The position numbers and the translations under genes are program-made. DNA of 46,029 bases, filler included, from Jimgerdemannia flammicorona (taxonomy: Eukaryota), in assembly GCA_003990765.1 (NCBI GenBank). It is 2 parts of 2 records of this genome, joined end to end, with 100 filler letters (N's around TTAATTAATTAA, not from the genome) between each part and the next. Parts side by side here need not be neighbours in the genome. Positions count along the whole stretch, not along the records: positions 23,068 to 46,029 come from RBNJ01001177.1; 1 more part is not named here. The stretch is one strand, 5' to 3'. Within the stretch, counting starts at the first letter, position 1; every line of letters begins with the position of its first letter. Shown here one piece after another: positions 7,541 to 46,029 of this stretch. The notes beneath the pieces were generated by a model. The model worked only from the letters and a program-made list of their open reading frames with translations. It had not been told where the DNA came from and did no database searches.

Positions 7541-7950
7541 CACTGGACTTTGTCAAGTTAAGACAAACTGCTAAGGCCCCAACTAAAGGAAGTCAAAAAG
7601 CAGTGAGATATGACCTGTATGTAGCTGAAGAAGCTATAGTTTCCAACCAAGAAGTCAAGCAAGTCTATACAGGAATCAGTATCCAAATCCCTGAAGGACA
7701 TATTGGAAGAATATACTGTTACAGCAGTCTAGCATTAAAAGAACTCTCAGTAGAAGAAGAAGTCATTGATGAGAATTATATAGGCAAAATTATTGTCCTC
7801 ATCTGAAACCATAGTTGGACACCCTTCAAGATCCCCATTGATTTCTGTATTGTACAGATCCTATTCAAAAAAATTGAGTTAACTCTGACAGTCAAAGAAG
7901 TCCCTGAACTACTGCCCACTATCTGAGAATCCAAAGAATTTGGCTCATCA
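7540..7950 (+). pseudogene. Retrotransposon-borne trimeric dUTPase domain (degenerate)
   Basis: FVKLRQTAKAPTKGSQKAVRYDLY...TGISIQIPEGHIGRI..SSLA...VIDENYIGKI...VQILF...ESKEFGSS matches dUTPase motifs 1-5; in frame with the knuckle and the protease. Confidence 0.85.
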
Positions 7951-10421: not shown

Positions 10422-13400
10422 TAAACTATATTTTTATTATCATCTATATCTATAATATAATATTATACAGTATCTCTCTATTCTATCCCACAAGAGACTC
10501 TTTTATTCCCATTTGTTGCCCAAGACACTCTTCTATCAGATACCTCAATCCTCCCTCTACTTCTCTCTGCAATCCTTCTCACTAGTCTCTTCTATCTCTC
10601 TTCTTTGGGCCCCCAACCAATCCACCATCCATTCAGGAGCTCCAACATCAACCACTTCTATCTCACCTCCCTCATCCTTACTGCCAACTTGGGGCCCTCC
10701 TTAAAGATACTCTACTAATGTTCTGTAAGTCCAACCCACATAGCTACTATTCATCCAACTATTAGCTACTCATTACTCACACTTCCTATCAGTCATTTCT
10801 GCAGAGCTGCCCACTGCCCACCTTTCTCTGGTATAGAGGCTACTACTCCCAACTACTGTCCAATCCTCATTCAGAAAATCTCTAAGCTCTCACACTCTTC
10901 CAATCAGTATTCTGGGGTCTATACTACCCCACTCTTCTGCCCAATATCAAAGTATTCCTTATAATCAAAAGTACCCCCTTCTACCAAGTACCCTGACTAA
11001 AAGTTCAGTATAATATTCTACCTCAGAAACCTCCACCACACCACCCAGAACTTGAATGGGAGCTATCTCACTACTGCTTTATTCTATAACCAGATGCTGG
11101 CCCAGTCCCAACCTTCACTAATACTGACCCCCTGCCAGATCTCTGACCAGAGATCTCTCCTCTGTCCTCCCAGGTACTCCATTCTATCCTTAAGACTAAA
11201 GTCCTCTACCTAACTACTCCCTAACAAAAGATAGTTCCTCCTCCACATCCAAGGCCCCCAGTCTACTTCCTTCTTCTTATCCCTCTATTAGATATTAATA
11301 TGGTGGACTCTATCAATCACTCCTTATCAAAAACCTTTATAGTATATCTTTTGGCTCCCCTCCAGTACCACCAAAGAGAGTAAGTTGCCAGAACCTCTCC
11401 TGGGTGACACCTATGCCTCCCAAATATATTACATTAGGGACACCTACTTTTCCCCCTTTAGCTCATCAGCTCATTTCAACTACTAAGCCCTTAGACAGTA
11501 TAGATGTTTAGAAAAGTCTACCAGGCCAAGCTCTCTATAGCCCACAGGAATTATCAGCACCTCCCATCTAATTTGACTATACCTCTCAGCCCAGAGCCAT
11601 GAGCAGGTTATCTTCAAAAGCCTCTTAACCACCTATTTTAGAAAGTCAAGGTGGTACCCTAGGTATCAGAGCTTTGGCATCTAGTATATATTCAGTACTA
11701 TCATCCTATCCACCAGTGAGATATGTCAACCCTCTCAGCCCTCTAGCACTCTGCCCCATTCTACCAGTTTATGCTCCCACTACTTCTTGAGTAATAAAGA
11801 GTCATATACCAAGAAGTAGATACCTAGATACTAGACTACCTCTCCTATAGGGACAATTGTTTCAACAATATCCCCTCCTACCACTTCTCCACCAAGTGCC
11901 ATTGTCTCACACTTATATCAGTTAAGTCATACTCCAGCATACCTCTTATATCATTCTACTACCTCTTTCAATTTAGCTACATTCTCTACTAATCTCAATC
12001 CAACTACTATGTCATCTATAAAGACCCCTATCTTCCAATTCACTCTTAGAATATTCAAACCTCTAACTCTATATCTAATTCTATTCAACAGTGGTTCCAG
12101 AGCAAAGGCATATAGAATAGGAGAGAGTGGGTCTCTCTGTAGCACCCCTCTTCCTAGGAAAAAGGAAGTTCCCCTGTGGCCATTTGCCAAAATTACTACC
12201 TGGCTCCCCTCTAGCAAACTGATAATAGAGTATTGAATGTCCTGAGGGACACCAATATATCATAGCACTATACCAAGCCAAACTCTCTGAACCTAGTCAT
12301 AGGTCTTCTTCTGATCCAAGAATATCAGGTAGCTATCCACTCCAGCAGTCCTTACTTCTTCAATAATACCATAGACCCAGACAGTACTATTTCTAATTAG
12401 GCAACTCCCAATAAAGCCCCTCTGCTCCTTCTCTAGTATGTACCTATTGAGCCACTCTCCACAACCTAGTCATCAGAACTTTCATCACCATCTTATGGTC
12501 TATGTCAAGAAGTATAATTAGCCTTCAGTTTTTCCAATCTTCCCTCCTCTTCTTGTCTTTATACAACAAAGTCATCAGCCCTAACTGCTGTCCTCCAATC
12601 TATGCCTCAGAGCCAATAATCTCATTACACATCTATATTATCTCCTCCAGTACCTTCTTAACTAATGTTATCTTCTTCCAAAAATCCTATGACAGTCCAT
12701 TCTCACCTGGAGCAGTACTCAGACTCATTGAAGCCAGGACCTAGATGATTTCTTCTGCTGTACTAGTGCTCTAAGTTCCCCCAGACCCATGGCCAGAGCA
12801 GAGTACTACTTTTCCAGATATTGCTCAATGTCTAGCACATTCTCCCCTTCCTCCTTCTTACTCTAAAGTCTACTCCACCAGCTACTCAGCTGCTCCAGTA
12901 TACCCTGTACCCCCATTACTATCTTGCCTTTCTCATCCAATACTCTATCCTACCTATGCAATGTTCTCCTTACCTTAAGAAGCCTTAACAGAAATTTGGT
13001 AGATTATTCATCTTCCTCTAGTCTCTGTTATCTCAGCCTAGTTACCAATGCTTACAACTTCACATTCTTCTCTCTTCTCAGTAAGTTCTGTAGCTCAGCC
13101 ACCTCTAGCTTTATCTACTGAGCCCTTCAGTCCATTTCCCCTTTCCCCTCTAACAGCTCTGCCCATCCTATCAGTAGCCTTTCCAACTGCTGAGATGCCT
13201 ACTGGATACTCCTTTATCTCTAAGTACCCTATATCTTCCCTGCCTCCCCCCAAAAACACTGAGCCTCAGACTTCAGTCTATACTATCTGTCTCCAATGAG
13301 CAGGTTGGTCTCTTTCTATGCTACAATCTGAGACTTAATTCTCCTTTTCTATGAATCCCACAGAGCTGTCTTATTCAATATAAAGGAGTTCAGACATCAA

Positions 13401-15258
13401 TGTCCAGGCTCCTCTCCACTTTCTCCAAACCTCTCTCTTCCCTGGACACCCTAGTGATCCAATCAGGGGCACTATTCTACCTCCACCCTCTCTCAGACTA
13501 TCACCCCCCAGTACTCAGCAGTCAAAATCCAATCAATCCTAAAGCTCAGTCCATCTGTCCAATATATATACATCCTATAGTCTCTATTCTATAGTCTCAC
13601 AGTATCTACTAGAGCACCAAGTTACTCAATCTCCTCCCAGTCCTCCATCTCTCCACTTTTCTCTAGTATCCCCCTTTTTTCATCTGTTCTGTCTAGTCTG
13701 AAATCCTGAATTATATTAAAGTCCCCACCCAGGCAGTCTACCCTAGTCTCTACTAGAGTACCAGAGTCCTGTAATCTCTGTATCCAATCTACCCTAGCCT
13801 CCCTCTCTGCTGAGTAGTAGCAAAAACCTACAACTACATTGCCCCAGCCCAGTCTCTGTCAAGACCCTTACACCAATCTGCTCTCTCAATGTCCAATGTT
13901 CTTAATATCTCCCTTCTCTCTTCTAACTAATATTCCCATCTTTCCCTATCATATTGCCACCCTCTCCCACTCCCTCATCTATTCTAATCTATCTACCTCA
14001 ATCTCACACCTTATATCTTAAAGTAAAAATATGTCTGTATCCAGTTTCCTCAGTCAGCCAAAGATATTGTGACATCTCTCTGCCCCTCTAAGTCTATTGA
14101 TATTAATAGAGAATATATTGATTATACTGTTCATAGTGAATAATGTTAAAGAGGTACAAATTCACTCTACAATTCCATACTCTCATTCTCTCCTATCAAA
14201 TTCAAGTTCTGCTCAGTCTTGACCTCTGTTTTCAATTCCTGCTACTCATCCAGAGCTGCCAACAACTCCACACAATCCTCCTTATCTATTATTTCAATAG
14301 ATGCATAATACTTCTCACACACCACCCAGCCCCTTTCTTAGCCCTCATAGATAAGATACTTACTCATTTGTAATACTTAGAAGAGTCATCTTTTGGACTC
14401 TATTGTACTCCTCCTTCTCTAATAGTACTACCATAATCTCATCTCTCAGCCTCCTCACTATGTCCTCACCCCTTAGCACTTCTCCCCAGAAGGCCTTACT
14501 GACTATGTGAAAATCCACCTCTCTCAACTCCTCACTATCACATTCTTCAATATCTTCCACAGTCACTTCTCTCCACCCACTGCCTCTTCCCTCTAGGCTG
14601 ACTTCTATTCTCCAGTTTCCCTGCCCTTCCCCTTCTCAGTTCTTCCAGATTCATCCTATCCATCTTTGGACACATCCTATAGCTCCTCCTCTCCAATACC
14701 AAGTACTCTATACTGAATCAAAATCCTCTCTACCATCTTTATATCTGCTGTCACCACCTCTAACTCTGATCCCAATTCTCTCTCCTGGCCTTCTCTTTAC
14801 TGCCCTGACTCAGCCCACATACTAGCCCTCACACCCTTCCCACTGGTTACCTCAGTACTCTTCAGGTCTCCTCCAGGTATAATAATAGCTCTTTCTGTAC
14901 CTTTCTCTCCTGTACCTTTTTCCAGAGAGTATGGTCTATCTGTACCTTCTTACCATTGATGACCTCAATTACTGTCCTAGCCTCATACTTCTTCCAAGCC
15001 TTCTGCTTTCTCTTGACTGCTTCCACTATATCCTCCAGTACCTCCAGCAGATCCTCTTCCTCCTCTAGTATCTCTAGTACCCTTGATATCTTATATTTCA
15101 CCAGTCTCCACCTTAGCACTATTGGCCAGTCTCTCCTCTTCTCAGTATTCTCCTTTTTTGCTAGCCTTACCCTGATATTCACATCTCCTGTCCTGAGTTC
15201 TGTCCCCTCCTAGACCCAAAATTCAATATTGACAATATTACTAAACTCCTTAACAGTA

Positions 15259-21056: not shown

Positions 21057-21665
21057 GTTGCTAGTCTCTTTTCTCCAAAAACGATGTTGTAAGTGCCTTC
21101 CAAAGGTTGTATAATCTGAATGGTACCAGAGAAAGATAGTATTAACAGTATTCTTTATCAACTGCCTCACTTTCTCCTTTCTGACAGTTGACAGGTCTAT
21201 CACTATCAGTTGAACTATTCTGGGGTCCTAGTATATACATCTCACTATTAGAACTGCTATTCTCCTGATTTCCAATCCTTTCTTCAAAACCCCCAATAGT
21301 AACTCCTCCTCCTCAAAGCTGATCTCTACTGACTCAAGCTTTTTCAAAAACTTCACTGAGGCCACACCCTTTACTTTCTTAGCTAAGAGCCCCAGCACCA
21401 TCTTTGCTATTACCACCAAGTCTCAAAAGTACATCATGACTGTGAATTCAGATCTTGACTTCTTGAGTAATAGAGCTACCACTAGCTCTATCATACTATC
21501 TGCAAGATCACTAGACCTCATGCCCTTCTCACAGCTCAGTCTACTATCAGCTATTATATATAGATTTTTTCCAGATTGGCAGTCTCCTTGCCATCAGCAG
21601 TCCTGTATACTTCAGTCTTTACTCTCCTAGCTCTACTGCCCCTACTGCCAAGAGCTGCTCCCTTA

Positions 21666-21668
<3 letters not shown>

Positions 21669-21700
<32 letters not shown>

Positions 21701-22967: not shown

Positions 22968-23067
22968 NNNNNNNNNNNNNNNNNNNNNNNNNNNNNNNNN
23001 NNNNNNNNNNNTTAATTAATTAANNNNNNNNNNNNNNNNNNNNNNNNNNNNNNNNNNNNNNNNNNNN
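22968..23067. other. Assembly gap with artificial TTAATTAATTAA linker
   Basis: N-run, ttaattaattaa, N-run; 100 nt in total. Confidence 0.95.
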
Positions 23068-23217: not shown

Positions 23218-25013
23218 TCAACAATAGTCGCCCTCTTCTTCGTCCTCGTCCTCCCCGCCAGCCATGCCATAGAAGAACTCGACCTCCAACTTGCCCGTGA
23301 CTACTTCGGGTTCGCTTCCTCTCCCCCCCCTAATTTTCTGCCTAACATCAATGATCCTACCATATGTCCTCCTAATCTCCTTCACAATCACATCCATTTC
23401 TCCCATAGCGCCTTCGCGTGCGTACATGCCAGCCCTAAAATCAATCTCCACGGCCATCTCGAAAAAATTGACCATGGGATCCTGGACCCATTCCTTCCAA
23501 GCGGGATCAACGGCGAGCGAGCGCAGGGTCTGCAGACGGTGGGGGTCATGTTGGGCGGTGTCGCGGAACTGGAGGCGGAAAGCTGTGGAGGAGGTCGTGT
23601 TGTACGCGTGGCGGGAGCGGAGGAAGGATAGGATAGAAGCCGAGAGAAGGAGAGGGCAGGAGGAGAGGGCTAGGGTGTGTAGGTGGGGGAGGTGAGTGAG
23701 AGGCGTGAGGGTTGTGATGGGGAGGGGTGAGACAGGGGTGACGGCGCGGTAGTCCCAGAGGATGAGTGTCGTGAGATTGGGAAGGAAATGGGGAAGGGTC
23801 GAGAAGAGGGGGTCGTTGAAAGTGGCTGGGGGAAGGCAGGGGGAGGTTAGAAATTATGGTCGAAGTTGGCGTCGCGAGTGGGTCATATATATCAATACTA
23901 ACCATGCCATTCTGTGCCTGTCGACATCCAGACCTCGAGCTCCTTCAACCCCGGACAACCTCTCAAACAAGCCTCAAATCCCTCACTTTCAAACCTCCAA
24001 CCACCCCTCCCGCCCCCGTCCTTCCTCAAAAACACCAACCTCCTCAACTTCTCCCTTTTAATCCTCCCCCACTCCACCAACGCCGCATTTGTCAACGTTT
24101 CACAGATACCAAAATGCCATGTCTCTAGTCCCGTACACACTTCACAAAACTCCCTCCACGCTCCCTCATCCTTCTCGATCTCAATCGCATGCGTCACATG
24201 CCCAAGCCTCAGTGCGGGGTACGACGCAAATTCCTTAAGCCTTGGCCCGAGAGTACGCGCGAGGACGGAGAGCAAGCGCGGTTGGTAAACACAGCACGTG
24301 TGGCCGTTCTCGGCCAGGGTGTCAGTGCCGCAGAGGCGGAGTTGAGTGAGGCGGTTGAAGCGGGGGAGGACGAGTTCCAGGAGCGGGAGAGTGGGACCCC
24401 GGACGGGAGTCGGTTGAGTGGAGGGGGCAGGAAGGAAGGTGTGGGTGAGGAATTCTGCCTGGAAGATATCATCGCCTAGGGAGAGGGATTCGAGTGCTGG
24501 ACAGGCGAGAGAGAGGAGATGGAGGAGGTGGTTGGCAGGGAGGCGGTGTTGTGAGGGGATGCGAGATGTGTTGGTGAGGGTTATGACTAAGGATGTGAGG
24601 TGCGGGAGGTGCGATAGTAAGTCCTGCCACGTCTGCGTCTCCCAGCGGAAGAGGATTGATTCCAGATGGTTCGGAAGCGGGATTTTGAAGTGGCCGCGGG
24701 AGCTGTGGTCGTGCTCTGGCTGGAGTCCATCGAGAGCATCAAAGAGGATGTGGAGGTCCGCGACGTTGAGCCCGTGAATTTTGGTGAGTTTGTGGAGAGC
24801 AGATTCGCTGCGCCGCGGGTTATTGGTGGTATCCCAGTGGATAGTGTGCCAGAGGTCGGGGGTGGAGAGCGCGACGTTTGCCCAGTGACGGCAGACCAGG
24901 GAGAGACAGATGAGGGAGTCAACGGGGGGGATCAGGTGGGAGAAGACGGAGGTGAGAATCTCGGGAGGGAGGGAGTGGACGAGTGGGGACTTTATGTTGG
25001 CTTCGGAATCCAT
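23218..25013 (-). CDS. F-box/leucine-rich-repeat protein, about 572 aa, 2 exons (25013-23903, 23825-23218)
   Basis: N-terminal F-box LPPEILTSVFSHL...LSLVCRHWANVALSTPDLWHTI; LRR-like CPALESLSL, CPGLKELEV, LPNLTTLIL. The 77-nt intron 23826-23902 (GTTAGT...CTAAC...CCCAG) joins ORF 23898-25013 in frame with ORF 23218-23475. Confidence 0.88.
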
Positions 25014-26088
25014 AACGTGTTTAAGTCCAAGATGAGATGTAGTCCTCTCACTCGAATATTTGTATATATGGGAGGAAACCCGTCACGGTTGTACAGATTT
25101 GGGCGGGTTCCAAATAGGATGGATCGCAAGTTCGATAGAACTAAATTTGTGAGGTCACTTTTCCCACAAACCGCTCGCGGACGGGGTAAACCCCGAGGAG
25201 TGCAACGATGAGGGGCGAGAGGAGGAGGGTGTGCGGATGCAATTACATTATAGAGAGGGGTGAGGTATTGACGAGTGTATGTACGGCGTGACGCTCATTT
25301 GTTAATCGTCGAGTAGGTGCGTCATGTTCGCGTTGCTAGCGACGAGTTTGTTAGACAGGAGGATAAGATCATGAATGAAGGGTACGTGTTGTCTTGACGT
25401 TCAAAGTTCGACGCAAGGTTAAATTTTAAAGGAAACCAGCGAGACATTTCGCTGATGATGTAACGTACAATTCGAATAGTGTGCATGGAATCTTGGGCAT
25501 CTAGCATTGTGTAACGAACAAAAAGCAAACAACTACAAGCAGACTTGGCGTTTTTGTTTTTTGTTTCACTTCTCGATAGAGGAATCTAAAAATAAACAAA
25601 TACGTTAACGCATCGAGGCAGAACCAAATGGAGGCATTTGTTATTTGTGTGACGGTCGATTGCTTATTGTCAAAGAGGTAGATGATAGTATTAAAGGAAG
25701 TTGATGGCGGGGGTGCTATTAGCTCAGCATTGCCCTTTGTATTCCGCCACATACGCAAAGCCAAACCCGACCGATCTGCATGATCGATCCAAAGAAGTTG
25801 TATATACTCATTGACAGGTACACAGAGCATTATGCACCGAAGTTACGCATACAGAGTCGTACTCTTTGCAGTGTTTACACACTCTCTGAATATCCCGTCA
25901 ATCACGAATTGCGTGTAATTATGATCAGGTGGTCCTTCCCGCCGGGGATCCTGTCCACACTGGTTGTGTTTACAACCCTCAGAAGGAGCAATAGCGTCAA
26001 TCAAACACAACCCCATGGCTCCGTTTGTAGAGCTAAAAAACCCTCCGAAACTACACCTTCAACCACCTTTTTCGTCAACTCTCTATGC

Positions 26089-27213
26089 ATGATGCCCATC
26101 ACCAATCCATACCACCCCTCCCTCCGTACCTTGCTCTGCCTCGCCCTTCTCTTCGTCTTCCTCCTCCCCGTATCCTATGCCCAAACCACCATCGTCCCCC
26201 ACTCCCCGGTCGTGGTTACAACCGCGGTGACGACCACGGTGTTAGTGACGCCGGCCATCATGGTGACGGTAACGCCCGCGGTCATCACAGTGACGGTAAC
26301 GCCCGCGGCCATCACGGTGACGGTGACGCCCCCGGCCATCGTGGTGACGACCACGGCCACGGTGACAGGCGAGGCGGCCACGGTGACGGCCGCGGCGGCC
26401 ACGGTGACGGCCACGGCCACGGTGATGCAGACGCTGATTTCTGGTATCATATCACCCATAGACCCACCATCCTCTACCGCCACCAACCAAAACATCAATT
26501 CCCCCTCCGGCATATCCAGCAACGGTAGCGGGGTGGGGAACGGAAACCTTAGCCTACCGTTGATCATCAGCGTCGGTGTCATCGGTGCGGTCGTCTTGGG
26601 GACTCTAGTGGCGATAGCGATCTTCCTGACGCGACGCCGGCGATCCGCCAACGAAGTCAACTTCGACCCCACCTCTGGTTCCGGCACCCCATCGCTGCCA
26701 ACAGATACCTCGTCTATGCATCGTTCTTTCCCGCCCTCTCCGGTCACCGACATGCACGGCCCAATTCGACCAGGCTCGTCCCCTGTCCCCGCTGGTGCGT
26801 TCTATGGTCCGCCCTGGCCAGCCATGCCGTCGCCGCACTTCCCGCCGTACCAACCGGGAGGCTACTTTGCATACGCCCCCAGAGGTGGCGGGCTGCGTCA
26901 AGCTGTCCCGTACCCGCCCTCATCCCCACTTGCATTCTTCACGCCGTACAACGGTCCCCCCGAGGTCGACATGGGTGAAGCCCACGGCGCGCCCAACTCC
27001 TATACGCCGACGCCGGTGCACGCCAACACAACGTCCCCTCCGCATACGTTTAGTCCCGTGCCCGTGCGTCCAAGAGTTCAGGCGGGGCATGCGCCCTTGC
27101 TACTGTCGCGTGGAGTGCCGAATGGGCTGGAGAACGTGCCCGAAGTGACGGACGGAGGGATAATAACCTCGCCCAGGCCACATTCGGTTGAAGTGGATGG
27201 GACAAGTAACTGA
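26089..27213 (+). CDS. Single-pass type I membrane protein (about 374 aa), Mid2/Wsc-like cell-surface architecture
   Basis: Signal peptide ...LLCLALLFVFLLPVSYA/Q; Thr/Val-rich repeats; Ser-rich stalk; TM LPLIISVGVIGAVVLGTLVAIAIFL followed by TRRRRS; Pro-rich tail; high GC3; no intron needed. Confidence 0.85.
   Translation: MMPITNPYHPSLRTLLCLALLFVFLLPVSYAQTTIVPHSPVVVTTAVTTTVLVTPAIMVTVTPAVITVTVTPAAITVTVTPPAIVVTTTATVTGEAATVTAAAATVTATATVMQTLISGIISPIDPPSSTATNQNINSPSGISSNGSGVGNGNLSLPLIISVGVIGAVVLGTLVAIAIFLTRRRRSANEVNFDPTSGSGTPSLPTDTSSMHRSFPPSPVTDMHGPIRPGSSPVPAGAFYGPPWPAMPSPHFPPYQPGGYFAYAPRGGGLRQAVPYPPSSPLAFFTPYNGPPEVDMGEAHGAPNSYTPTPVHANTTSPPHTFSPVPVRPRVQAGHAPLLLSRGVPNGLENVPEVTDGGIITSPRPHSVEVDGTSN
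26245..26425 (+). repeat. Coding minisatellite, 27-bp unit (VTVTPAxIT) grading into ATVTA repeats
   Basis: gtgacggtaacgcccgcggtcatcaca / gtgacggtaacgcccgcggccatcacg / gtgacggtgacgcccccggccatcgtg. Confidence 0.85.
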
Positions 27214-28921: not shown

Positions 28922-29330
28922 TGTAATATTTTAGCATAGTTTATTTCTTTTCTTTTCTTTGTCTTTCTTCAATATTCTACAATCTTCCAGTACTTTCTGA
29001 ATGCTTAGAAATCCTTTCTTGGTGCTGAGCATCCTCTAGTACTTATTTAGCTAGTCACTGAATGTTCTGAAAACTTGTAGAACTTTATTTGTCATTATTT
29101 ATCATCTTTGCTGAGAACTTTCCTCTTGGCATCTTCTTTTGATTTCTCAGATCCTTCCAGATTCTTCTTTCAGATCTTGTATAAATATCTCCTTTGTTCT
29201 CATAAATAAAGTCTTAGAATATTTTCTCTCAGAAATCCTTCAAGAATACTTGAATTCTTAAGTATCTCTTTAAGCTACTTAAAACTACCAGAACTAGTCA
29301 CTTCCTCATTTAGAAACTAGAACTGTTATA
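28922..29330 (+). repeat. 5' LTR (409 bp)
   Basis: Direct repeat of 34536-34944; TATA (gtataaata, about 29179) and AATAAA (about 29205). Confidence 0.95.
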
Positions 29331-29398
29331 CTTAGTAGCAGCAGTTAAGTTATACCTAGCCTTATCAAGACACCTCTCAAGATATCAGTCACAACACT

Positions 29399-32300
29399 AT
29401 GGAGGACAATGGATGGAACCCTTCATACAGTACCTACAGTCCAGGCAATACCTCATACAACTAGCAAGAAGAAGAGAAACAGCAAAACCCTACTCAGTCA
29501 AATGGAGCTATTGAGAGTCTTTTGCAGACTGCATTAGCTCAGATTGCCCAACTTCAAGAATACATAGAAAGAAAGAAAAGCAAGGCCCCTGCTCATACCT
29601 CTGTATCTCCATCAATATCAATACATCCAACAGCAGTTACTATCAAGCCTCAGAAGCCTGACACTTTTGATGGTCAAAGAGGAGAACTGTCTACTGATGC
29701 CTGGTTTTTCCAATTGGAGCAATATGGAGAACTGACCAATTTGGAAGAAGCAATACTAGTCCAATTTGCTGCCACACTCCTCTGCAATCTGGTAGTGAAA
29801 CTATGTCTAGAATACCAGATTTGCTGGCTGGATCAGGACCTGGAATGAATTCTCTGATGCTGTTCAAGGCCAATTCAAACCAGTCAATAGTACTAAGGCT
29901 ACACAAGACCATCTGGCAAATATCAAACAACTCAAGTCTATACAAGCATATAATGCACAATTCCTATCAATCCTGCTTGAATTACCACATATCACTGAAG
30001 ACGAGAAGGTTGACAAGTATATCTGAGGCCTGAAAGGTCAAACCTGAGTTCATATTGAACTAGAAGAACCCAAGGACCTAGATATAGTAATGAAGATTAC
30101 TGATAGGTTTGATGTCATCACCTATAGTCACTGCTTTAAACAGAAGAGACCGCCTTTCAACAACAACCACAAAAGGGAGGAACCTAAAGTCAGAACTATT
30201 GGACCTGCCCCCATAGATCTAGATACTATCAACAAGAGCAAGAAAGGCAAGCTTACATCTAAGGAAAAAGAGTGCCTCAAGAAGGCTAGAGCCTGCTTCT
30301 TTTGTCGTCAGCCTGGTTATATTGCAACCAAATGTCTCAAGAAAACTGCCAAATCAAAGAGGATTCTGGTCCTGTCCAAAGATACCCAAGGTCAACCAGT
30401 TGAACAAGAAGTGGTACTCAATTTTATACAAGTCAACCCCAAGATCCAGATCCCTCAAGTATAGTCAGAAGGAGCCATTGGTTTGGACCTTTAAGCAGTA
30501 CAACAAGTCACTATTCCTATACATGAAAGAAGGCTCATTCTAACTGGCCTTTCAGTCAAAATTCCCAAGGAATATTATGCAAGAATTGTATCAAGATCTG
30601 GCCTCAGTTTCAAGCACTCATTGGATATTAGTGCTGGAGTCATTGACCCTGACTTCTGAGGCAAAATGCAAGTCCTACTAGTCAACTACAAGAACCAACC
30701 ATATACTGTCAATGAAGGTAACAGAATTGCACAGCTCATTCTGGAGTGAGCCATCCTATCAGTCATCAAAGAGGTCACCAAGCTGTCTTCAACCAAGTGA
30801 GATTAGAAAGGCTTTGGCAGTACTAATAAAGTTATAAGTATAGCCAAGAACTGAGCCAATTTAATGCTCATTTTCAAAGGCCTAGTCAAGGGACAAGAGC
30901 TAGATATTCTCATAGACAGTAGAGCTGTTGGGAACTTCATCAACAAGAATCTCATTGACAAGCTCAAGATTCTCACCAAACCAGCCAGCAAGAATGGTGG
31001 AGTTATCACTACAGATGGCACCACCTTACCAATTGACTCAATTGCTGCTAAACTCCCTCTCAAGATCCAGAAGTACTGGGAATGTTTAGATTTTGAGGTA
31101 GCACCACTAGGAGACCATGACCTGATTCTAGGCAAACCCTGGTTTATATGATACAACCCTCAGATTAATTGGACTAAGAATGAAGTCACCCTGATTCAGG
31201 ATGGAACCAACATTACCATCAAGCCAGACAAGACTCAGATGAAAACCCCAATTGCTACCCTTTCAGCAATTCAGTTCAAGAAGACCCTCAAGAAAGCTAC
31301 CTGTATCTTTGTAGCACTGATCTGATCAAAGAAAGAAGATAAGAAGCTATCAATTAGTGAAAGCATCAAGTTACTGCTGAATAAGTACAAGGATGTCTTT
31401 CTGGACAAACTATCTGGTCTACCACCTTCAAGAGACCATAACCACGAAATCAAGTTGGTACCTGATGCAGCTATACCTAAGAAGAAAATGTACCACATAT
31501 CTCTACTTGAAATTGAAGCAGTCAAGAAGGAACTCAATGAACTCATTGAGCAAGGAGCCATTCAGCCAAGCAAGTCACCCTTTGGCTCCCCAGTCCTATT
31601 TGTCAAGAAAAAGGATGATACTCTGCAAATGTGTATAGACTACTGAGCACTCAACAAGATCATAGTCAAGAACCATTATCTGCTACTGCTCATAGATCAA
31701 ATCTTTGATGCTCTCAAAAATACAAAGTACTTCACCAAGATTGATCTCACCTCTGGGTATCACCAAATTCGAATCAAGTCAGAAGACATACCCAAGACTG
31801 CCTTCATGACACCCTTTGGACTCTACAAATTTCTAGTCATGGCCTTTGGTCTCACCAATGTACTAGCAATCTTTCAAGATCTCATGCAGACTGTCTTCAA
31901 GGATCAGCTCTATATCTTTATACTTATATACATTGATGATATTCTGATCTTCAGTAGTACTGAAGAAGAATACCTCAAGAATATTGAACAAGTCCTCAAG
32001 ATCCTCCATGAGAACAAGCTCTATACAAAGCTCAAGAAATATGAATTTTTCAAGAATCAAGTCAAATATCTTGGACACATTGTATCAGCCAAAGGAATTC
32101 AAGTAAATCCAAGGAAAATACAAGCCATTGAACAGTGGTCTGTACCAGCAAACCTCACTGAACTCAGGTCCTTCCTTGGTCTGGCTGGATACTACCATTG
32201 ATTTGTCAAGAACTTCTCTAGTATCATAAAATCTTTGACAAATCTCCTGTGAAAGGAACCTAACTCTGACCTCTATGTCCCCTATATCTGAAATACTTTC

Positions 32301-34220
32301 TGTAAACAAGCTTTTCAAGAACTCAAGAACTGCCTGACTCATGCATCTGTCCTTAGAAACATGGACCCAAACTTGAAGTTCATGGTCACTATAGATGTAT
32401 CTAACTTTACCATTAGTATAGTCATTTCTCAAGATAATGGTCAAGAACACTGACCTATTGCCTTTGAGTCAAGAAAATTGTCCCCAGCTAAACAAAAGCT
32501 GGCTACTCATGAAAGGAACTCCTAGCAATCATGCATGTCCTCAAGACCTAGTAATACTACTTAGAAAGAGTTGAGTTTGATGTGATCACTAATTACAGAT
32601 CTCTTTAGTACATCAACACTCAACCAATCCTTTCTCACCAACAAGCCAAGTGGAGTCAACTACTTCAGACCTTTACCCCAAACATCATCTACAAGCCTGG
32701 CAAAACTCTAGTTGTACCAGATGTACTTTCAAGAAGACCTGACCTTGCCGCAATTTTACAAATTACCATGGTACCCAAATTCCTCAATCAGATCAAGAAG
32801 ACATACAAATAAAACTCTCTGGTTCTACAAAGGAACACCAAGGAATTCAAGAAAAAGTACACCATCAAGAACAACCTTATGTACTATCAAGACAAAATAT
32901 ATATTCCTACCAACCCTGAACTACAGTATAAGATTCTTCATAAACACCATAACTCCCCACTAGCTGGCCACCTTGGAACTGAGAAGACCATCAAGAATAT
33001 CCAATGAGACTACTACTGGCCAAACATACTCAAGGAAATCAAGGAGTATGTCCAAAGCTGTGATCTTTGCCAAAGAAACAAGTCAAGCAATCAAGCACCT
33101 GCCAGTCTTCTGCAACCCCTGCCAATTCTAACCAAGAAGTTCAAACAAGTCACAATAGACTTCATTATATAACTCCCACAAATCAAAACAGGCTATGATA
33201 CTATTGTTGTATTTGTGGACTATCTCACCAAGATTACAATCACTGAGCCAACCACAACCAATGTCACTATCTCAGAAATTGCAAGAATCTTCTTCAAGAC
33301 TATCTTCTGCCATTATGGACTTCCCTGAGTAATTATCAGTGACCATGATCCCAAGTTCACAAGCCACTTCTGGCAAGTACTCTTCAAGATCCTTGGAATC
33401 CAAATTGCTATGTTCACTGTCTTCCATCCTCAAACTGATAGACAGACTGAGCAAATGAACAGAACACTCGAACAAATGCTCAGAAACTATATGTCTTATG
33501 AGCAAGATGATTGGGACCACTATCTGACCTATGCTGAGTTCATCTACAATAATGCCACCCAATCATCAACTGGCCTTTCTCTATTTCAGCTACTTTATGG
33601 TCAAAACTCCAAGACCCCTGCAAGCCTAGTCTCATTCCAGCAATCCAGTCACACACAAGTCCCCACAGCCCAGAACCTTATCAACAAAATGGATTCTCTT
33701 TTCAAGATCGCCACTACAAATCTACAAAAGGCTCAGTAATATCAAGCTAAGTATACAGATAAGAAGCGGCGAGATATCATATACAATATTGGTAATATGG
33801 TTCTACTCAAAGCCAACAATATCAAGGCTCAATCTTAAGTCAATCACCAGTCAGCCAAATTCCAGCCCAAGTACCTTGGACCCTTTGAAATCACCAAGTA
33901 AGTCTCCACCTAGTCTTACTGCCTCAACCTGCCAACAACCATACATATATACCCAGTATTTCATATGTCACAACTCAAGACCTGGAACCAGTCACCTCTT
34001 TACCCTGGCCAAATTCTGACACTATCAGCACTAGTGATAGTTGAAGACCACATCGAGTATGAAGTTGAGAAAATCTTAGACAAATGAGTCTAATACCATT
34101 GCACAGAATATCTAGTCAAGTAGATAGGTTACCCTGAATATAATGCTACCTGGGAATCTGCCACCAATCTCAAGAACTCTTAAGATCTCATCCAAGAGTT
34201 CAAGCAAAAAGAAACTCATT
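29399..34220 (+). pseudogene. Degenerate gag-pol polyprotein
   Basis: KPDTFDG; knuckle CFFCRQPGYIATKC; protease ILIDSRAVGNFI (ancestral DSG) and LILGKPW; RT SPFGSPVLFVKKKD, IYIDDILI, YLGH; integrase HNSPLAGHLG, CDLCQ, HPQTDRQTE; chromodomain EYEVEKILDK...ATWE at about 34055-34160. Confidence 0.93.
30425..30824 (+). pseudogene. dUTPase domain between zinc knuckle and protease
   Basis: GAIGLDL...TGLSVKIPKEYYARIVSRSGL...AGVIDPDF*GKMQVLLVN...GNRIAQLIL...KGFGST; same frame as the 30090, 30864, 31455 and 31806 ORF pieces. Confidence 0.93.
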
Positions 34221-34535
34221 GACTGCCCATGAGGTTCTCTCCTTAGATAGTAGATGATATATTATGCTAATCAGATATATTAAGTATCAGGGCACTCTAA
34301 AGGATACAGTATCAGAAATAAGAGATATAGGAGAACCCTATAAATCCTGCAACCAATGAGGTTCAAACCAGTTCTCATCTAATCAAGATGATACTTTGGC
34401 CCTTGCCTTATACAAGGATGGCCAATCCTTACCAATGAGCCAACATATTTTGTTTGAGATTTCTTTTAGTCTTATTGTTTATTATATGTAACTTTAAGAA
34501 TTCAATAGAGATATTGATTCTTAAGAAGGGGGAGA

Positions 34536-34944
34536 TGTAACATTTTAGTGTAGTTTATTTCTTTTCTTTTCTTTGTCTTTCTTCAATATTCTATGACCTT
34601 TCAGTACTTTCCAAATGCTTAGAAATCCTTTCTTGATACTGAGCATCCTCTAGTATTTATTTAGCTAGTTACTGAATGTTCTGGAAACTTGTAGAACTTT
34701 ATTTATCATCATTTGTCATCTTTGCTGAGAACTTTCCTCTTGGTATCTTCCTTTGATTTCTTAGATCCTTCCAGATCCTTCTTTCAGATCTTGTATAAAT
34801 ATTCCCTTTGTTCTCATAAATAAAGTTTCAGAATATTTTCTCTCAGAAATCCTTCAAGAACACTTGAATTCTTAAGTATCTCTTCAAGCTACTTAGAACT
34901 ACTAGAACTAGTCGCTTCCTCATTTAGAAACTAGAACCATTACA
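34536..34944 (+). repeat. 3' LTR (409 bp)
   Basis: TGTAAC...TTACA, direct repeat of 28922-29330. Confidence 0.95.
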
Positions 34945-35181
34945 TCTTTACTAAAAACTATTTTTTTGGCTTTTTTTTTTTTCATTTTTAAGATTCTTCC
35001 AGATTTTTCTTTCAGATCTTATATAAATATTCTCTTTCTCTGCTTAAATAAAGATCAGTTTATTTTCTCTAAAAATCTTTAAGACTACTTAAACCTATAA
35101 GTATCTCTTTAAGCTACTTTAAGACTACTAGAAAACTTTCAGATTTAGCTATTTTCTTTTAAAAAAACTAGAACCATTATA

Positions 35182-37417: not shown

Positions 37418-40220
37418 TCACCACTCCACCACCACCACAGTATGTATCTCCACTTTCTCTAGCTCCACATCCACATACCCCTCTTTCATCTTAAACTCCA
37501 CCTCCTCTTCCTCCGGAGCCAGATATACCCTCCTCGGCAGCCCCCACCCCTCCGCATCCAATAATCGGAATCCTACCCCGGTCACACTCCATCCCTGATC
37601 CACATGCGGCTTCGATTGCCACGTCCGGCGCGGATGGTATGCCACGATGTGCACGATCTTGCGCTTGCACGTACCCAACACCTGCACATGCAAACTGAAC
37701 TCCATCCATCCAGGCGCCCGCGGCACGATCAACCTGCGCGGCATCCAGTCCTCCAACGCCGCCAGCACGATATCGCGGTAGCACCAGTAGTCGTTCCGCA
37801 TGAAGCTTCCCAGAAGCGGTGCCGCGAAGTACAGCACGGATGGATCGCGGACCACGATCGGCGAGCCAAGCGAGTCTCCAACGGGTGCATGCGCGTGCGA
37901 GGTCAGGTGCTTCCAGGTGCGGTTGAAGAGCGCCTGGCTGAGGGTGCCAAAAGATTCGGCGGTACTAGTGGTGGGCTCGACAACGTGCGCCGTGTCGTAG
38001 AAGACGTAGTCATAGTCGCATGAGAGCTCCGAGCTCGGGAGCCGCGTCAGGAATGTGTCCAGCCGCAAGTAGCTTGGCGTCGTCGGCGCCGGCGAGACGT
38101 ACCGGACGGGGACGGCAGGGATGTCGTTCTTGACCGCTGTGCCGCTCAGGATCAGCTTGCCCCCCCGAGCGATAAACTCGGTGATCCGGTCTCTCAGGTC
38201 GTCGCTGATCAGCGACCCATCTGAAAGGACCAGCATCTTGTACTTATCCGCAATGGGAGTCGTCGCCTCGATGACGTCGAACTGTACTCCCCTCTCCAGG
38301 AACATCTGTGCCGCTCCATTCAGGTCCGAAAAATGAGCCGAATTATACTTGTCCCAGTCCTTCCCCGCCGGATCCATGTTTCCGACGGCCAACAAAGCCA
38401 CCTCCGCCTCGGTGACCGCGCCGTTCAGCCACGGTTCCAGAGACTCGATCTTACCGAAGCATTTGCCGATCAGCGTGTACACCGCTGGGTCTAGGACCCC
38501 GTGAGGGTGCAGCTGATCGCCGACGGAGATGAGGCCGCCAGCTGCCACAATCGTGCCGACCTCATATTCGAGTTGGTGGCTTGTTTTGATACCGCCGAAG
38601 TCGCCCCACGCCTGGAGGTGGTGGGTTATGAGGATGCATATTAGATCATAAAAATGAGCGATGGGTGCAAGATGCAAAGGACGAACGAGAGCCAAGAATA
38701 TTAGCCTTGGGTCTCACTTTGTGAAAGCGACCGGTCATCCCGAGAAATAGATATTTTGTGGTTCGAGCCTGGCGGGACATCACGGCTGTATGTCGAGAAA
38801 ATACGGTTAGTCGCAGATTGCATAGAGAGGGACTAAACGTGTAGATTTTGAATTGCGGATGGATCATAAAGATCGAGAGAGACAATACTCACGATACCTC
38901 ATATAACCCTACACATTCGAATATTATGATGCGCGCAACTATTAGTAAACGGTCATTGATACAAATCAAAGCAAGCAACAAAAACACATTCAATATTATT
39001 ATTGAAAAGTGAATTATCACCCAACCACCAGTTGGCAGGCTGTATAGGAAGATTAGAAACATGGGGTTAAGCATACACATCATGGCGGATCTGACGATAC
39101 GACCTCCAAACCACTTTCACACTCAAGTCATATGAAACCCTCGTTTCATTACACCTTATTATTATCATTTTTTCTGAAAACATAAAAACCGGAAACGACG
39201 GCATACCTCTCAATCTCCAAATGAGTTTGGTATGGCAGCATTAAATTCAACGTGGGCTTCACCGAGGAATTATAAAATATACTCGCATCCGGCCTCGCCT
39301 TTAACACCACATCCGACAGCCTCTTCACATACGCGTAATACTTCACACGCACATACTCCCACACCGCCCCATCGTTGTCGATCTCGACTCCCTCGGAGCG
39401 CATCCTCGCCTGGCTCATCGCCGAGTAGTTTGTCTGCGGTGCGCAGATGTCGAAGAAAAACCCGTCGACGGCGTCGCCATACATGTCCAGGATCTCGCGC
39501 ACCTGCGACACCAGGTACTCGCCGTACCCTGTGAGCACGTCCACGTGCGCCCAGCCGAACATGGCTGTAAGAGGGGGGCGGATCTTGGCGATGCCGGATT
39601 TCTCGACGACCACCCATTCGGAGTGGATTTCGCCTGACAGGCGGGGTTTAGATGTAAGGTGGGGGTTAGATGTAAGGTGGGTTTGGCGACTCTGGACGTG
39701 TTAGGGAACGAAGAAATGAATAGGCAAAACTCACCAGCATAATCATCCCAGTTCATGGTCAGATAGATTGGGGCTCTTGCTCCCACTGAGTGCAATGCCT
39801 CAATCTGAGCGCCGAGAAGATCGAAGTCGAGATAAGGGTGCATTTTGCCAAACTTTGTGGGATAGTAGCTATATATCCACGAGGATCGATGTGAACACCA
39901 TAAATGTTCAAATTCTCACAAATCGCGCTTTACAAAGCAATCTTCACACATACCTGAAGCCATGATGACTGTTAACCAGCAAACAATTGTATTACATCAC
40001 TATGTTATTGGTAGGAATAAACACGAAGCACACACATCGGCGCCCAAAATTGCCCATACCACTTTGCGAAAACTGTCATCGAGTTGATATGCGCGTTTTT
40101 GACCGTCTGGGCAAAGGTCTCCTTGTCAAAATCCCGACCAACGTTTTCGCACGTAGGCCCGGTGTGGAAATCCAGGTGGACCTGTCGACGACATTTGGCA
40201 AAGGGGATGGAAGGTCGCAT
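37418..40220 (-). CDS. GH151-like alpha-L-fucosidase (GHL6-type TIM barrel plus beta-galactosidase trimerisation-like domain), about 677 aa, 8 exons: 40220-40060, 39968-39954, 39868-39735, 39633-39207, 39039-39021, 38908-38893, 38785-38718, 38611-37418
   Basis: Spliced motifs RQVHLDFHT, FAKCHHGFSYYPT, DLLGAQIEALH, DGFFFDI, HLEIESLPTGGWGY, GMTGRFHKAWGDFGG, SVGDQLHPHG. All introns are GT-AG; exons total 2034 nt and stay in frame. Confidence 0.87.
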
Positions 40221-41555: not shown

Positions 41556-41904
41556 GTAATAGATACTATTTATTTTAATATTAAAGCAACTTAGATAGAA
41601 GATTAAAACTAAGACTAAGAAGATAAAGAAAATCTTTTAGAGAATTAACTCTATATAACTATAATATTAAAATAGATAATATCTTTTCAAGATAATAAAT
41701 ATGTATCTATAAAATAAACTATAATTATATATTAGACTATCTCTCTAGACCCTTAATAGTTATTATAATAACTAGCTTAAAGAACTTCTACTCATTTAAT
41801 ATGTATCTGATCTATAAACTATACTAGTAATCTCAGTATAATTAATAGTAATACTAGTATCTAAACCACAACTACTAGTAGTTAATATAGTAATAGATAA
41901 CTAG

Positions 41905-43442
41905 TATAACGGTGACTCCGGAATGATGATATCAGCACAGAAGACAGCCTTTCCTTACAAGCCACCAGATCGAAGCACAAGAAGATCATACGGCATACGA
42001 GATGAGTAATAATGACCAACTGTGAGTCATTGTGACCACAGCACAAGCATCCTGAAGAATATAAAAGAAGGATCAAGGAACCACAGTAGCAGTAACCAAC
42101 AAGAACCACCAATCCCAAAATAGCTCAAAGACTTACCACAAATAAAATACCTACTGCCCACCAAACCTCAAGGTCAAGGAACCATTAAGGAATCTCGGTT
42201 GAAGAAAGGATGTTCCAAGACATCAGAAGAGCCATGCAGACCCGCTCAAGAAGGACTCCTAGTGTCAACCTGGGTACTGCAGACCCCTATCACTTCATCC
42301 TCTACTGCCGTGAAATGGAAACAAGGATCACCATCACCACCAAATGCCTCCAAATGTAGCAGGAGTACGAAATAGGAAACCTCCTCTGCCGGGAGTTCCC
42401 ACAGGCCAGCACCCAAGAGCTACAAGATGCCACTCCCATGGATATACGTGAAACGAGGACAGCTAAGAAGATCCATCAGATCTTCAGGCATGCACCATGG
42501 TCGATTCCCAACTTGGAGTATATTAGAGTCTCAGATTTCAGAGACCTGTCATCTCGCCGCATCAATGCACTAGAAGCCAGGGTGGCTACAGAAGCCCAGT
42601 CCACTATCACCCTCAACAGTGAAGAAGTAGAAGACTTCTGGCACCCCATCCTTCAGGACAACCCAGACCAATTCCTGCAAGGATTGATCTCAGTATTCCA
42701 AGGCCTAAACATCTGAGTTAGATTCCCCCAAGACCCCACATTTGTCCCCTATTTTGTGGAAGAGAACCTCATAGATTGGAGAGCTCCAAATCTTGTCCCC
42801 GATTTCCCCGCCGAATGTGATGACGTCATCGGCGATGACATCATCCCGCACGACATACCCGAGGTATGCGAGACGCGCGACCTGTATGATGAATTCGTGG
42901 ATCTCATCTCCTTCAGTGATGATGATGATGATGAAGCCCCCATGGTCCTGAACTTTCTGCTCTAAGTTCTTTGTTACACTGGATAATACCAGCACCGGTA
43001 TTCTCATGTAACACCAGATAATACCAGCACCGGTATTCTGAGGTGACGCGAAATTGTTCCAGCACCGGCATTTTGATGTAACACTGGATAATGCCAGCAT
43101 TCTAAACCTGTACAACCAACAATACTAGCCCTGGAACTTAGTAGTTTTAGTTATTGGAATTTATATTTAGCTTTATATCTTAGCAACCATTAAATTATAT
43201 TTTGTATAAATACCCCTCTTATTTCCTCTGAAATAAAGTCAGTCTTCTCAGTGCAATATACATACTTCCTTGCAAGCAATCTAAGAGATAACAAGACAGT
43301 TAAAGATAAGAAGTTTGAGAACTATAAGACCTTGGGAAGGCACTCCAATAAGAACTTGCTTATAACAACTTGAGTTAGTCTAAGAGATACACCTTGAAGA
43401 GAATCTGGCATATTTGAAGGACTCAGCGACCACTACGTGATA
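41905..43442 (+). mobile_element. Solo-LTR-like element (1538 bp) with an internal ORF, copy 1
   Basis: Ends tataac...gtgata (TG...CA mutated); flanked by ctag (41901-41904, 43443-43446); host sequence resumes colinearly; TATA at about 43204, AATAAA at about 43232. Confidence 0.8.
42147..42965 (+). pseudogene. Unknown LTR-internal ORF, copy 1
   Basis: ORFs 42438-42716 and 42756-42965 share one frame; its internal stops are sense codons in copy 2; start is ATA here and ATG in copy 2. Confidence 0.7.
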
Positions 43443-44330
43443 CTAGATATAGACTCTTATAGTATATATATATATCTATAATAGTTATAATAATTACTCA
43501 GCTAACTAAATAGATAAGCTAACTAAAAGCTTAAGTCTCTCAATCTTTCATAGTATCTTTCAGAAAATCATTAGTTTTATTAATATTAAAAATACTAACT
43601 TCAAAGCCAATTAATAAATAAATAAAAGAATCTCAGATTACTTTCTAATAAATAATTAAGACCATATCCTTAAATAATCTTTTATTATAACTATATCTAA
43701 TATTTACTGAGTTATATATTATATTTTTTAGAGATTTAACTAAAGAATAGTAGTAAACTCTTTTAGACAAATATCTTATATAGAATATTTATCTAGTAGT
43801 AGTTGTTTAAGTTAGACAAAATAACTAATCTAGTTATATAAGATAACTAAGAAATATTTATATTATATTTAATAAATCTTACAGAAGTTGAAAAAATATA
43901 CTGTTTATCAAATTAAAGAAATATAAGTTTACTGAAATTGAAATTTTCTATCTAGAATATATTATTAATTAGACTAAAACTCATAAACTCTATCAAAATT
44001 CAGACTATAACAGCTTATCTAAGACTTACTATAGCTATATATAAAGCCAGAGTCTTTATAGAACTTATTACTTACTATAGAAGATTTATCAAAATTCTCT
44101 AACATTGTAAGCTCTATCTATGATTAGTTCAGAAAAGATATTAAATTTAAATAAACTAATAAGTAATAATAAATATTTAATTAATCCAAATTAGATTGAT
44201 CTAGATATCTATCTTAAGAAGACCCAACTAATCTAAAGAATTTATTTTTCAGATAAATATAAGCTCAATTAGACTAGAAGTAGTTTTTATATATATAAAG
44301 AAAAATAAAGTAGAATATATGATTATATAT

Positions 44331-45770
44331 TGTAACGGTGACCCCAGAATGATGACATCAGCACAGGAGACAGCCTTTCCTTGCAAGCCACCAGATCAGA
44401 GCACAAGAAGATCATACGGTATATGAGATGAGCAATGATGACCAACTGTGAGTCATTGTGACCACAGTACAAGCATCCTGAAGAATATAAAAGAAGGATC
44501 AAGGAACCACAGTAGCAGCAACCAACAAGAATCACCAATCCCAAAATAGCTCAAAGACTTACCACAAACAAAATGCCTGCTGCCTGCCAAACCTCAAGGT
44601 CAAGGAATCACCAAGGTATCTCAGTTGAGGAAAGGATGTTCCAAGACATCAGAAGAGCTATGGGGACCCACTCAAGAAGGACTCCTAGTGTCAACCTGGA
44701 TACTGCAGACCCTTATCACTTTATTCTCTACTACTATGAAATAGAAACAAGGATCACTATTGCTACTGAATACCTCCAAATGTGGCAGAAGTATGAAATA
44801 GGAAACCTCCTCTGCCGGGAGTTCCCACAGGCCAGTACCCAAGAGCTATAAGATGCCACTCCCATGGATATATATGAAACAAGGACAGCTAAGAAGATCT
44901 ATCAGATCTTCAGGCATGTACTATGGTCAATCCCCAACTTGGAGTATGTTAGAGTCTCAGACTTCAGAGACCTATCATTCTACCGTATTAATGCACTAGA
45001 AGCCAGGGTGGCTACAGAAGCCCAGTTCACTATCACCCTCAACAGCAAAGAAGTAGAAGACTTCTGGCACCCTATCCTTCAGGACAACCCAGACCAATTC
45101 CTGCAAGGATTGATCTCAGTATTCTAAGGCCCAAGTATCCAGGTTAGACCTCCCTAAGACCCCATATTTGTCCCCTATTTTGTGGAAGAGAACTTCATAG
45201 ACTGAAGAGCTCCAGATCTTGTTCCCGATTTCTCCACCACAGCTGAATGTGATGATGTCATCAGTGATGATGTCATCCCATGCAACATACCCGAAATATG
45301 CGAAACGTGCGACCTGCATAATGAATTTGTGGATCTTATCTCCTTCAGTGATGATGATGATGATGATGATGAAGCCCCCATAATCCTGAACTTTCTGCTC
45401 TAAGTTCTTTGTTACACTAGATAATACCAGCACTGGTATTCTGAGGTGATGCAAAATTGTTCCAGTACTGGCATTTTGATGTGACACTAAATAATGCCAG
45501 CATCCTGAACCTGTACAACCATCAGTGCCAGCCCTGGAACTTAGTAGTTTTAGTTATTAGAATTTATATTTAGCTTTATATCTTAGCAACCATTGAATTA
45601 TATTTTGTATAAATACCCCTTGTATTTCCTCTAAAATAAAGTCAGTTCCTCTTAGTACAATATACACACTTCCTTATAAGCAATCTAAGAGATAACAAGA
45701 CAGTTAAAGATAAGAAGTTTGAGGACTATAAGATCTTGGGAAGGCACTCTAATAAGAACTTGCTTACAAC
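44331..45770 (+). mobile_element. LTR-like element, copy 2, cut at its 3' end by a LINE
   Basis: Starts TGTAACGGTGAC; direct repeat of 41905-43367. Confidence 0.85.
44573..45403 (+). pseudogene. Unknown LTR-internal ORF, copy 2 (276 aa reconstructed)
   Basis: ATG 44573 to TAA 45403 in one frame; the four internal stops read CAA or TGG in copy 1. Confidence 0.7.
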
Positions 45771-46029
45771 ATCTTTCTCCGGTAACATTCAGGTTACACA
45801 AGACTCAGACAACACTTTCTACAACGTTTTTGGTGTCCAGCGACTAACAACATGGACGGCAATGATCGATCTGGTGAGTGTACTGGCCAGGGAGGTGGTG
45901 GCGCCTTTGGCTGGCAGCAGGTGGGGAGGAGGGGAGATGGTTTGGGGATGCCAGGGGCCTCGATGGCTAGCCGGGGCCCCAGCGGCGGGGGAAGGGGAGG
46001 TCTGAGGCAGAGAGGAGGGGAGAGGACAA
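45771..46029 (+). mobile_element. LINE 5' end (5' UTR and Gly-rich ORF1 start), continues beyond the window
   Basis: atctttctccggtaacattcaggttacacaa matches the 5' end at 21137(-); ATG 45852 gives MDGNDRSGECTGQGGGGAFGWQQVG. Confidence 0.85.

Follow-up and report, generated by a model that had tools for sequence, protein, structure and literature searches.

The window analysed here, a stretch of 46,029 nucleotides (nt) from Jimgerdemannia flammicorona (assembly GCA_003990765.1), contains two direct copies of a ~1.54-kb unit that resembles the long terminal repeat (LTR) of a retrotransposon. Each copy carries a degraded open reading frame (ORF) for a very acidic protein, preceded by one TATA box and followed by a second one and an AATAAA signal. 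Copy 1 (41905–43442) is complete and copy 2 (44331–c.45773) lacks its right end; their mean column identity is 91%, and tblastn and blastn searches of the window returned no copies of the unit beyond these two. We think it probable that they are LTRs of a fungal LTR retrotransposon with a self-contained gene in the U3 part (the region upstream of the transcription start), copy 1 standing as a solo LTR and copy 2 having been hit by a long interspersed nuclear element (LINE).

Over the columns common to both copies we counted 1292 identities, 134 transitions, 5 transversions and 48 gap columns. Mutated cytosines are distributed as 69 of 220 in CpA, 26 of 82 in CpG, 22 of 185 in CpC and 17 of 196 in CpT contexts, and derived T/A states are found at 87 positions of copy 2 and 47 of copy 1. 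This transition spectrum, with its preference for CpA and CpG, is the signature of repeat-induced point mutation (RIP) or a similar process: the differences are almost exclusively C:G to T:A transitions, CpA is favoured and the DNA is duplicated, as in RIP relics. By itself this spectrum would make a fungal host most likely. The two repeats are probably RIP-degraded copies, and both are dead in this window. Around them, in the repeat-rich second record, GC content falls to 21–26% in troughs between islands of 44–48%.

The damage did not efface the reading frame. Of the internal stops, three in copy 1 and four in copy 2, none is shared, the counterpart codon always being CAA, CAG or TGG, and the two length differences between the ORF copies are each of 6 nt and in frame. 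When the transition differences were resolved to C/G, for counting purposes only, the frame showed 0 internal stops in 277 codons and the other five frames 6 to 20 stops. Shuffling the repeat 2000 times never produced an open frame of at least 270 amino acids (aa). The copies, the stops that disappear on comparison and the single open frame are all as the original prediction described them. With tblastn, an intact relative (P0004) matches the copy 1 ORF at 73% identity over residues 1–271. Judged from these comparisons, the ORF is a genuine conserved coding sequence without a known family. Opposite the acidic tail and the 35-nt repeats, the minus strand has two antisense frames, at 42705–43124 (139 aa) and 45116–45553 (145 aa); we rejected them as chance because they are not kept in a diverged DNA relative, L001, whose own antisense ORFs do not exceed 84 and 88 aa. 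The richness of the coding strand in GAT probably accounts for the two frames.

The relatives of the ORF form a small family, and all those found are metagenomic. A word-indexed protein search gave 233 candidates, 6 of which are intact relatives (57–89% identity), including one full-length protein of 271 aa running from MPAARQ to ILNFLL. A profile search of 1.84 billion representative proteins returned 5 at E≤1e-3, all of the ORF's own family and nothing besides. The 8 clusters examined list 18 members, all on JGI/IMG or ENA metagenome contigs of 540–4848 nt and named “hypothetical protein” at most. Twelve members can be aligned end to end, from an MPA or MPP start to a (V/I)LNF end, with 28–80% identity to the first. 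The motifs WxEYE, HQxFRHxP, WNPxLxDxPDQ, F(Q/E)GP and PY....I.W are invariant or nearly so in this alignment, and the acidic tail is variable; across the family the ORF spans 271–342 codons.

A pattern search of metagenome contigs gave 380 matches, one of them a true relative (L001); none was found among the 19 pattern matches in viral contigs. L001 is a 1345-nt DNA that encodes an intact 323-aa protein with 55% identity to P0004, and it presents the signals in the same order as the window unit: TATAAAAG, ATG, ORF, GTATAAATACCCCT and AATAAA. Its DNA can be aligned to copy 1 at the ORF only (669 nt, 71%), plus two short blocks, the 11-mer GAATATAAAAG 5' of the ATG and 16 nt around GTATAAATACCCCT that are 100% identical. 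Selection thus appears to have kept the ORF and both TATA elements. Between L001 and copy 1 the proportions of non-synonymous and synonymous differences are 0.273 (pN) and 0.649 (pS), and the corrected rates 0.34 (dN) and 1.50 (dS) give a ratio of ~0.23, with dS close to saturation. This comparison supports purifying selection on the ORF.

At the protein level, the original prediction had described a helical-looking core, a very acidic tail and no recognisable Gag, Pol or Env domain. The tail, 56–126 residues long, has a net charge of -15 to -27 and a conserved LNF motif at its end; the core is acidic and, in the closest relatives, the segment before WxEYE is mildly basic (net +4 to +7). The maximum Kyte-Doolittle mean over 19 residues is 0.74, with no membrane segment. 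Two AlphaFold models have a mean predicted local distance difference test (pLDDT) of only 38.9 and 46.6; a helical region is modelled at residues ~54–185, and within it the best part, residues ~100–160, reaches a pLDDT of 53–76 per ten-residue block. Pfam gave 0 families at E≤0.1 for the two window frames, two chance-level matches at E≤1 for the 12 relatives (ATG5_HBR, 0.088; GAE_BBS1, 0.23), and no match of a Gag, Pol or Env model to either set. In the PDB the single-sequence search found only Srn2, at E 1.1, and the profile search nothing; in the ESM Atlas the best feature score (0.83) and the TM scores (≤0.33) are at chance level. The best hit of the fold search (VIA, Z 4.9) covers one long helix (residues 51–98) only, and BFVD gave no match at E≤1e-3, a weak comparison given the low-confidence model. 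Since the fold matches are limited to a single helix, no fold can be assigned. From its composition, the protein would be a soluble, very acidic accessory factor, probably nuclear.

We then considered whether the unit is an LTR. It starts with TGTAAC in copy 2 and ends with GTGACA in public contigs; the TATAAC start and GTGATA end of copy 1 are the mutated forms. Copy 1 is flanked by CTAG on both sides, within the 4–6 bp expected of a target-site duplication, and the second TATA box and the poly(A) signal are, by their motifs, in the order U3-R-U5. They are 20 nt apart, and the pair lies ~230 nt before the unit end and ~270 nt after the ORF stop. A poly(A) tail is lacking, and any terminal inverted repeat is limited to ~6 nt. 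An additional TATA box upstream of the ORF had been overlooked in both copies by the original prediction. The 35-nt tandem array 3' of the ORF, ahead of the second TATA box, may be enhancer-like. The features are listed in Table 1.

Table 1. Features of the two copies of the LTR-like unit and of the adjacent LINE; positions refer to the window.
Feature	Position	Strand	Remarks
CTAG, left putative target-site duplication, copy 1	41901–41904		read from sequence
Copy 1, complete 1538-nt LTR-like unit	41905–43442	+	TATAAC start, GTGATA end
Upstream TATAAAAG, copy 1, putative ORF promoter	42060–42067	+	~80 nt 5' of start codon; GAATATAAAAG identical in L001
ORF, copy 1	42147–42965	+	ATA in place of ATG; 3 internal stops (TAA14, TAG71, TGA190); 272 sense codons
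ORF start, copy 1	42147	+	ATA; ATG in copy 2 and relatives
ORF stop, copy 1	42963–42965	+	read from sequence
35-nt tandem unit, 3.4 copies	42982–43099	+	between ORF and second TATA; one unit fewer in copy 2
GTATAAATACCCCT, putative LTR promoter/terminator module, copy 1	43204–43237	+	TATA TATAAATA 43205–43212, AATAAA 43232–43237
CTAG, right putative duplication, copy 1	43443–43446		read from sequence
Copy 2	44331–45773	+	TGTAAC start; last ~70 nt missing at LINE junction
Upstream TATAAAAG, copy 2	44486–44493	+	read from sequence
ORF, copy 2	44573–45403	+	ATG intact; 4 internal stops (TAA93, TAA185, TAA195, TGA211); 276 codons
TATAAATA and AATAAA, copy 2	45608–45615 and 45635–45640	+	read from sequence
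5'-truncated LINE (5' UTR end and ORF1 start)	45772–46029	+	runs off window; outside LTR; junction within 45771–45775
Full-length 6.4-kb LINE	21668–15276	-	RVT_1 at 17178–16663; poly(A) 3' end; no LTRs

Public contigs extend this description beyond the window. Those of four runs span copy 1 from the first to the last bin and diverge from the window just after 43440, where their loose ends all open with CA and then differ. Four contigs labelled X1 and one labelled X4, from two soil-metagenome studies, have the identical continuation ACTTGGTGCCCATTGG(CTGGTGATTCAA), with the layout CA-ACT-TGGTGCCCATTGG, i.e. a TGG-type look-alike of a primer-binding site (PBS) 3 nt past the CA. Three X12 contigs continue differently (agreement 0.6), and the window itself continues with CTAG. 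The same terminus is thus used in several sequence contexts, at least three, which would fit a mixture of a 5' LTR with its PBS and of solo or 3' LTRs. The contigs of the four runs leave the AT-rich DNA on either side of copy 1 uncovered, from which we draw no conclusion. The depth of the X12 contigs is ~9-fold higher from 43302 on; that X12 is RNA is a guess, and contigs cannot show a transcript start. A sequencing-run search with the words of the unit listed no RNA run and no run with at least half of the words. Across the window, the PBS-like motif with 3 mismatches allowed gave 11 matches for 8.7 expected, i.e. nothing, and a scan for bacterial promoters and terminators, irrelevant here, stayed at chance level.

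That the unit is an LTR of an LTR retrotransposon is, on its termini, duplication and contig continuations, well supported without being proven, and we hold it as very likely; copy 1 is probably a solo LTR. The accessory gene borne by an LTR, as originally proposed, has accordingly gained on two sides: the ORF is real, conserved and upstream of the TATA box and AATAAA, and the LTR assignment is backed by the ends, the CTAG duplication and the continuations in public contigs.

The extents originally given to the copies hold for copy 1, to 43442, and not for the right end of copy 2, near 45770, which is not a natural one: a LINE abuts there, at 45771–45775. The sequence from 45772 on matches a LINE at 21137–20979 on the minus strand (70.5% identity over 156 nt, E 4e-13), so copy 2 is interrupted by a 5'-truncated LINE, beginning ~530 nt inside the full-length copy. 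The break corresponds to ~43369 of copy 1, and the last ~70 nt of copy 2, if surviving, would be past the window end. The 6.4-kb element is a LINE because it has an RVT_1 domain and poly(A) ends and lacks LTRs; with the 5' truncation of the copy at 45772, the DNA to the right of copy 2 thus has all the LINE traits (reverse transcriptase, poly(A) 3' end, no LTRs, 5' truncation). A 993-nt LINE 3' region recurs at 22660–21669 (minus strand), directly upstream of the full LINE and with ~31 A at its end, the poly(A) ends of the two 3' regions being at 21669 and 15276. The stretch TTTTTGGTGTCCAGCG to the right of copy 2 was tried as a PBS and rejected: it is LINE 5'-UTR (untranslated region), also present at 21090–21075 on the minus strand. 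More diverged LINE-related sequence is found at ~1177–3971 and 10645–13438.

Several observations weigh against a gene-carrying LTR. No window copy of the unit adjoins gag-pol, and no polypurine tract precedes copy 2; the candidate PBS stretch (TGGTGCCCATTGGCTGG) is a contig consensus of 17–30 nt, and the window has no tRNA genes with which to compare it. By our own estimate, a 4-bp duplication would arise by accident in AT-rich DNA about once in 100 cases. On the protein side, the structure models are poor, and domain, PDB, fold and ESM Atlas searches link the protein to no activity. The selection estimate comes from one DNA relative, L001, at a dS near saturation. Fused or longer forms of the protein were not found among 8000 candidates of 486–2000 aa, which is weak evidence.

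The alternative that best withstands the data is that the unit is no LTR. It would then be the terminal part of a longer non-LTR element or else a small gene cassette, mobile or multi-copy, that has its own promoter and poly(A) signal and an incidental second TATA box. Its layout, TATA-ATG-ORF-AATAAA, is that of a plain gene, the window has isolated copies only, and most contigs of the relatives are about unit-sized (540–2375 nt, and one of 4848 nt). Against a cassette speak the TG..CA termini with a 4-bp duplication in a unit devoid of a poly(A) tail and of longer inverted repeats, and the 16-nt block at the second TATA box, which is perfect in L001 while the other non-coding DNA cannot be aligned. 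Past the terminus, moreover, the contigs of two studies run on in one common sequence, in which TGG stands 3 nt behind the CA, where other contexts differ, and the TGTAAC start and the TATA-AATAAA module are as in a true LTR nearby. We consider this explanation unlikely.

Still less probable, in our view, is that an LTR recently took up the ORF from the host, as a whole gene or a piece of one, and that any conservation goes back to a former cellular role. The protein has no retroelement domain, and LTR elements are known to capture foreign ORFs; PMC5408684 describes varied ORF3s in rotifer elements. A cellular origin is at odds with the 5 proteins only, all of the ORF's own family, among 1.84 billion representatives, and with the 18 listed members, all on contigs of 540–4848 nt and at most “hypothetical”. 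The diverged L001 is still between the same LTR signals, so that the association of the ORF with the LTR is old. Finally, that the open frame is a by-product or relic, picked by gene callers on repeat contigs and making no protein, would agree with the missing domain, the low-confidence models and the want of a listed RNA run, and is very improbable for a frame of a length never reached in 2000 shuffles, open and alignable from first to last residue down to 28% identity, with pN well below pS and conserved in patches as folded proteins are, the core motifs being constant and the tail variable.

Under the favoured explanation, an LTR with its own gene, the unit would flank gag-pol in complete elements. 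The U3 gene would consist of its own TATAAAAG ~80 nt 5' of the conserved ATG, the ORF of 271–342 codons and the LTR AATAAA as poly(A) signal. From the first TATA box, either LTR of an element, as well as solo LTRs, would produce an mRNA of ~1.1 kb for the protein, ending at the LTR AATAAA; transcription of the genomic RNA of the element would depend on the second TATA box (GTATAAATACCCCT), immediately 5' of that signal. Because the gene would be self-contained in U3, every LTR, solo ones included, would be a possible transcription unit for the protein.

The product would be a trans-acting accessory factor. A helical core with a long acidic tail dotted with hydrophobic residues would fit a nuclear factor that recruits or titrates host proteins. 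We propose only tentatively that it is a trans-acting regulator that raises or protects the transcription of its own LTRs. The full scenario, in which the LTR of this lineage has turned into a complete gene and all LTRs, solo ones included, are a source of an acidic nuclear factor acting in trans to activate the LTRs of the family or shield them from silencing, is a little more doubtful again; it would make the protein a retrotransposon equivalent of retroviral transactivators or of VANC-type anti-silencing proteins. The protein may instead be a cofactor of virus-like particles or of RNA handling, or a selfish passenger.

The rest of the window is occupied by other repeats and by genes. The two records are joined at 22968–23067 by a linker with stops in all frames (N44-TTAATTAATTAA-N44), and both copies of the unit are in the second record (23068–46029). 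This record also contains, at 28923–34945, a RIP-degraded Ty3/gypsy-type LTR retrotransposon whose LTRs of ~410 nt are 92% identical and flanked by TCTTT. It has RVP_2 (30855–31151) and RVT_1 (31647–32201) domains and, by eye, a chromodomain-like C-terminus (~34050–34200); a third, partial copy of its LTR is at 34976–35122. Repeats of ~1.1 kb at 4001–5133 and 8909–10040 (89–90% identity) enclose retroelement remnants, with a dUTPase domain between them at 7495–7806 (E 7e-14); as their similarity continues past 10040, the structure is not a simple LTR pair. Three apparently intact host genes stand between the repeats, at 23218–25082 (minus), 25723–27213 (plus) and 37418–39915 (minus). They encode, respectively, an F-box protein with leucine-rich repeats (F-box-like, E 6e-12), a Thr/Val/Pro-rich ORF of 496 aa and a glycosyl-hydrolase-like product, the latter with weak GHL6 and Glyco_hydro_42M matches, both below Pfam cut-offs.

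If the LTR reading is true, solo LTRs, usually regarded as inert scars or as promoters and nothing more, could code for protein, and an entire protein family would escape fungal annotations through repeat masking. In fungi defended by RIP, the protein would then be a candidate regulator encoded by an element, and a tractable one. The full-text literature searched, which is largely without subscription journals and so gives no proof of absence, yielded no account of a fungal LTR retrotransposon with a gene within its LTR. Passages in 10.64898/2026.05.04.722472 and PMC6673714 are worded similarly with another meaning.

One comparison is with the gypsy-type element of the window itself. Its LTR, like the 1.5-kb unit, starts with TGTAAC, ends with ACA, has a TGTATAAATA...AAATAAAG module and is associated with a short duplication (TCTTT). 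It differs in being only ~410 nt long and without an ORF, and has otherwise no similarity to the unit.

Accessory genes in U3 are textbook knowledge for a few vertebrate retroviruses: sag of mouse mammary tumour virus (MMTV) encodes a superantigen, and nef of lentiviruses and tas/bet of foamy viruses reach into the 3' LTR, foamy viruses also having a separate internal promoter for their accessory genes. The likeness is in the arrangement, an accessory gene in or across U3, duplicated with the LTR and polyadenylated at the LTR signal. We found no similarity of sequence or fold, the fold comparison being weak with a low-confidence model. In the window unit a whole gene with its own TATA box would be within the LTR of a probably fungal retrotransposon, and the protein is acidic and predicted to be soluble, whereas the retroviral protein compared is a membrane glycoprotein.

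Other extra genes of LTR elements are found in plants, as env-like or antisense ORFs. For bdelloid rotifers, PMC5408684 describes varied ORF3 types in the internal region of LTR elements. These rotifer and plant ORFs are likewise non-gag, non-pol genes of an LTR element conserved within a lineage. In those descriptions they occupy the internal region, either ahead of gag or in the interval from pol to the 3' LTR, and most have recognisable domains, in contrast to the domain-less ORF inside the LTR-like unit of the window.

With respect to function, the VANC proteins are anti-silencing proteins of the VANDAL transposons of Arabidopsis. These are plant DNA transposons, and no sequence relation to the window ORF is expected. 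VANC nevertheless offers, by analogy only, a model for what the protein of this unit might do: an element-borne accessory protein acting in trans for its own family.

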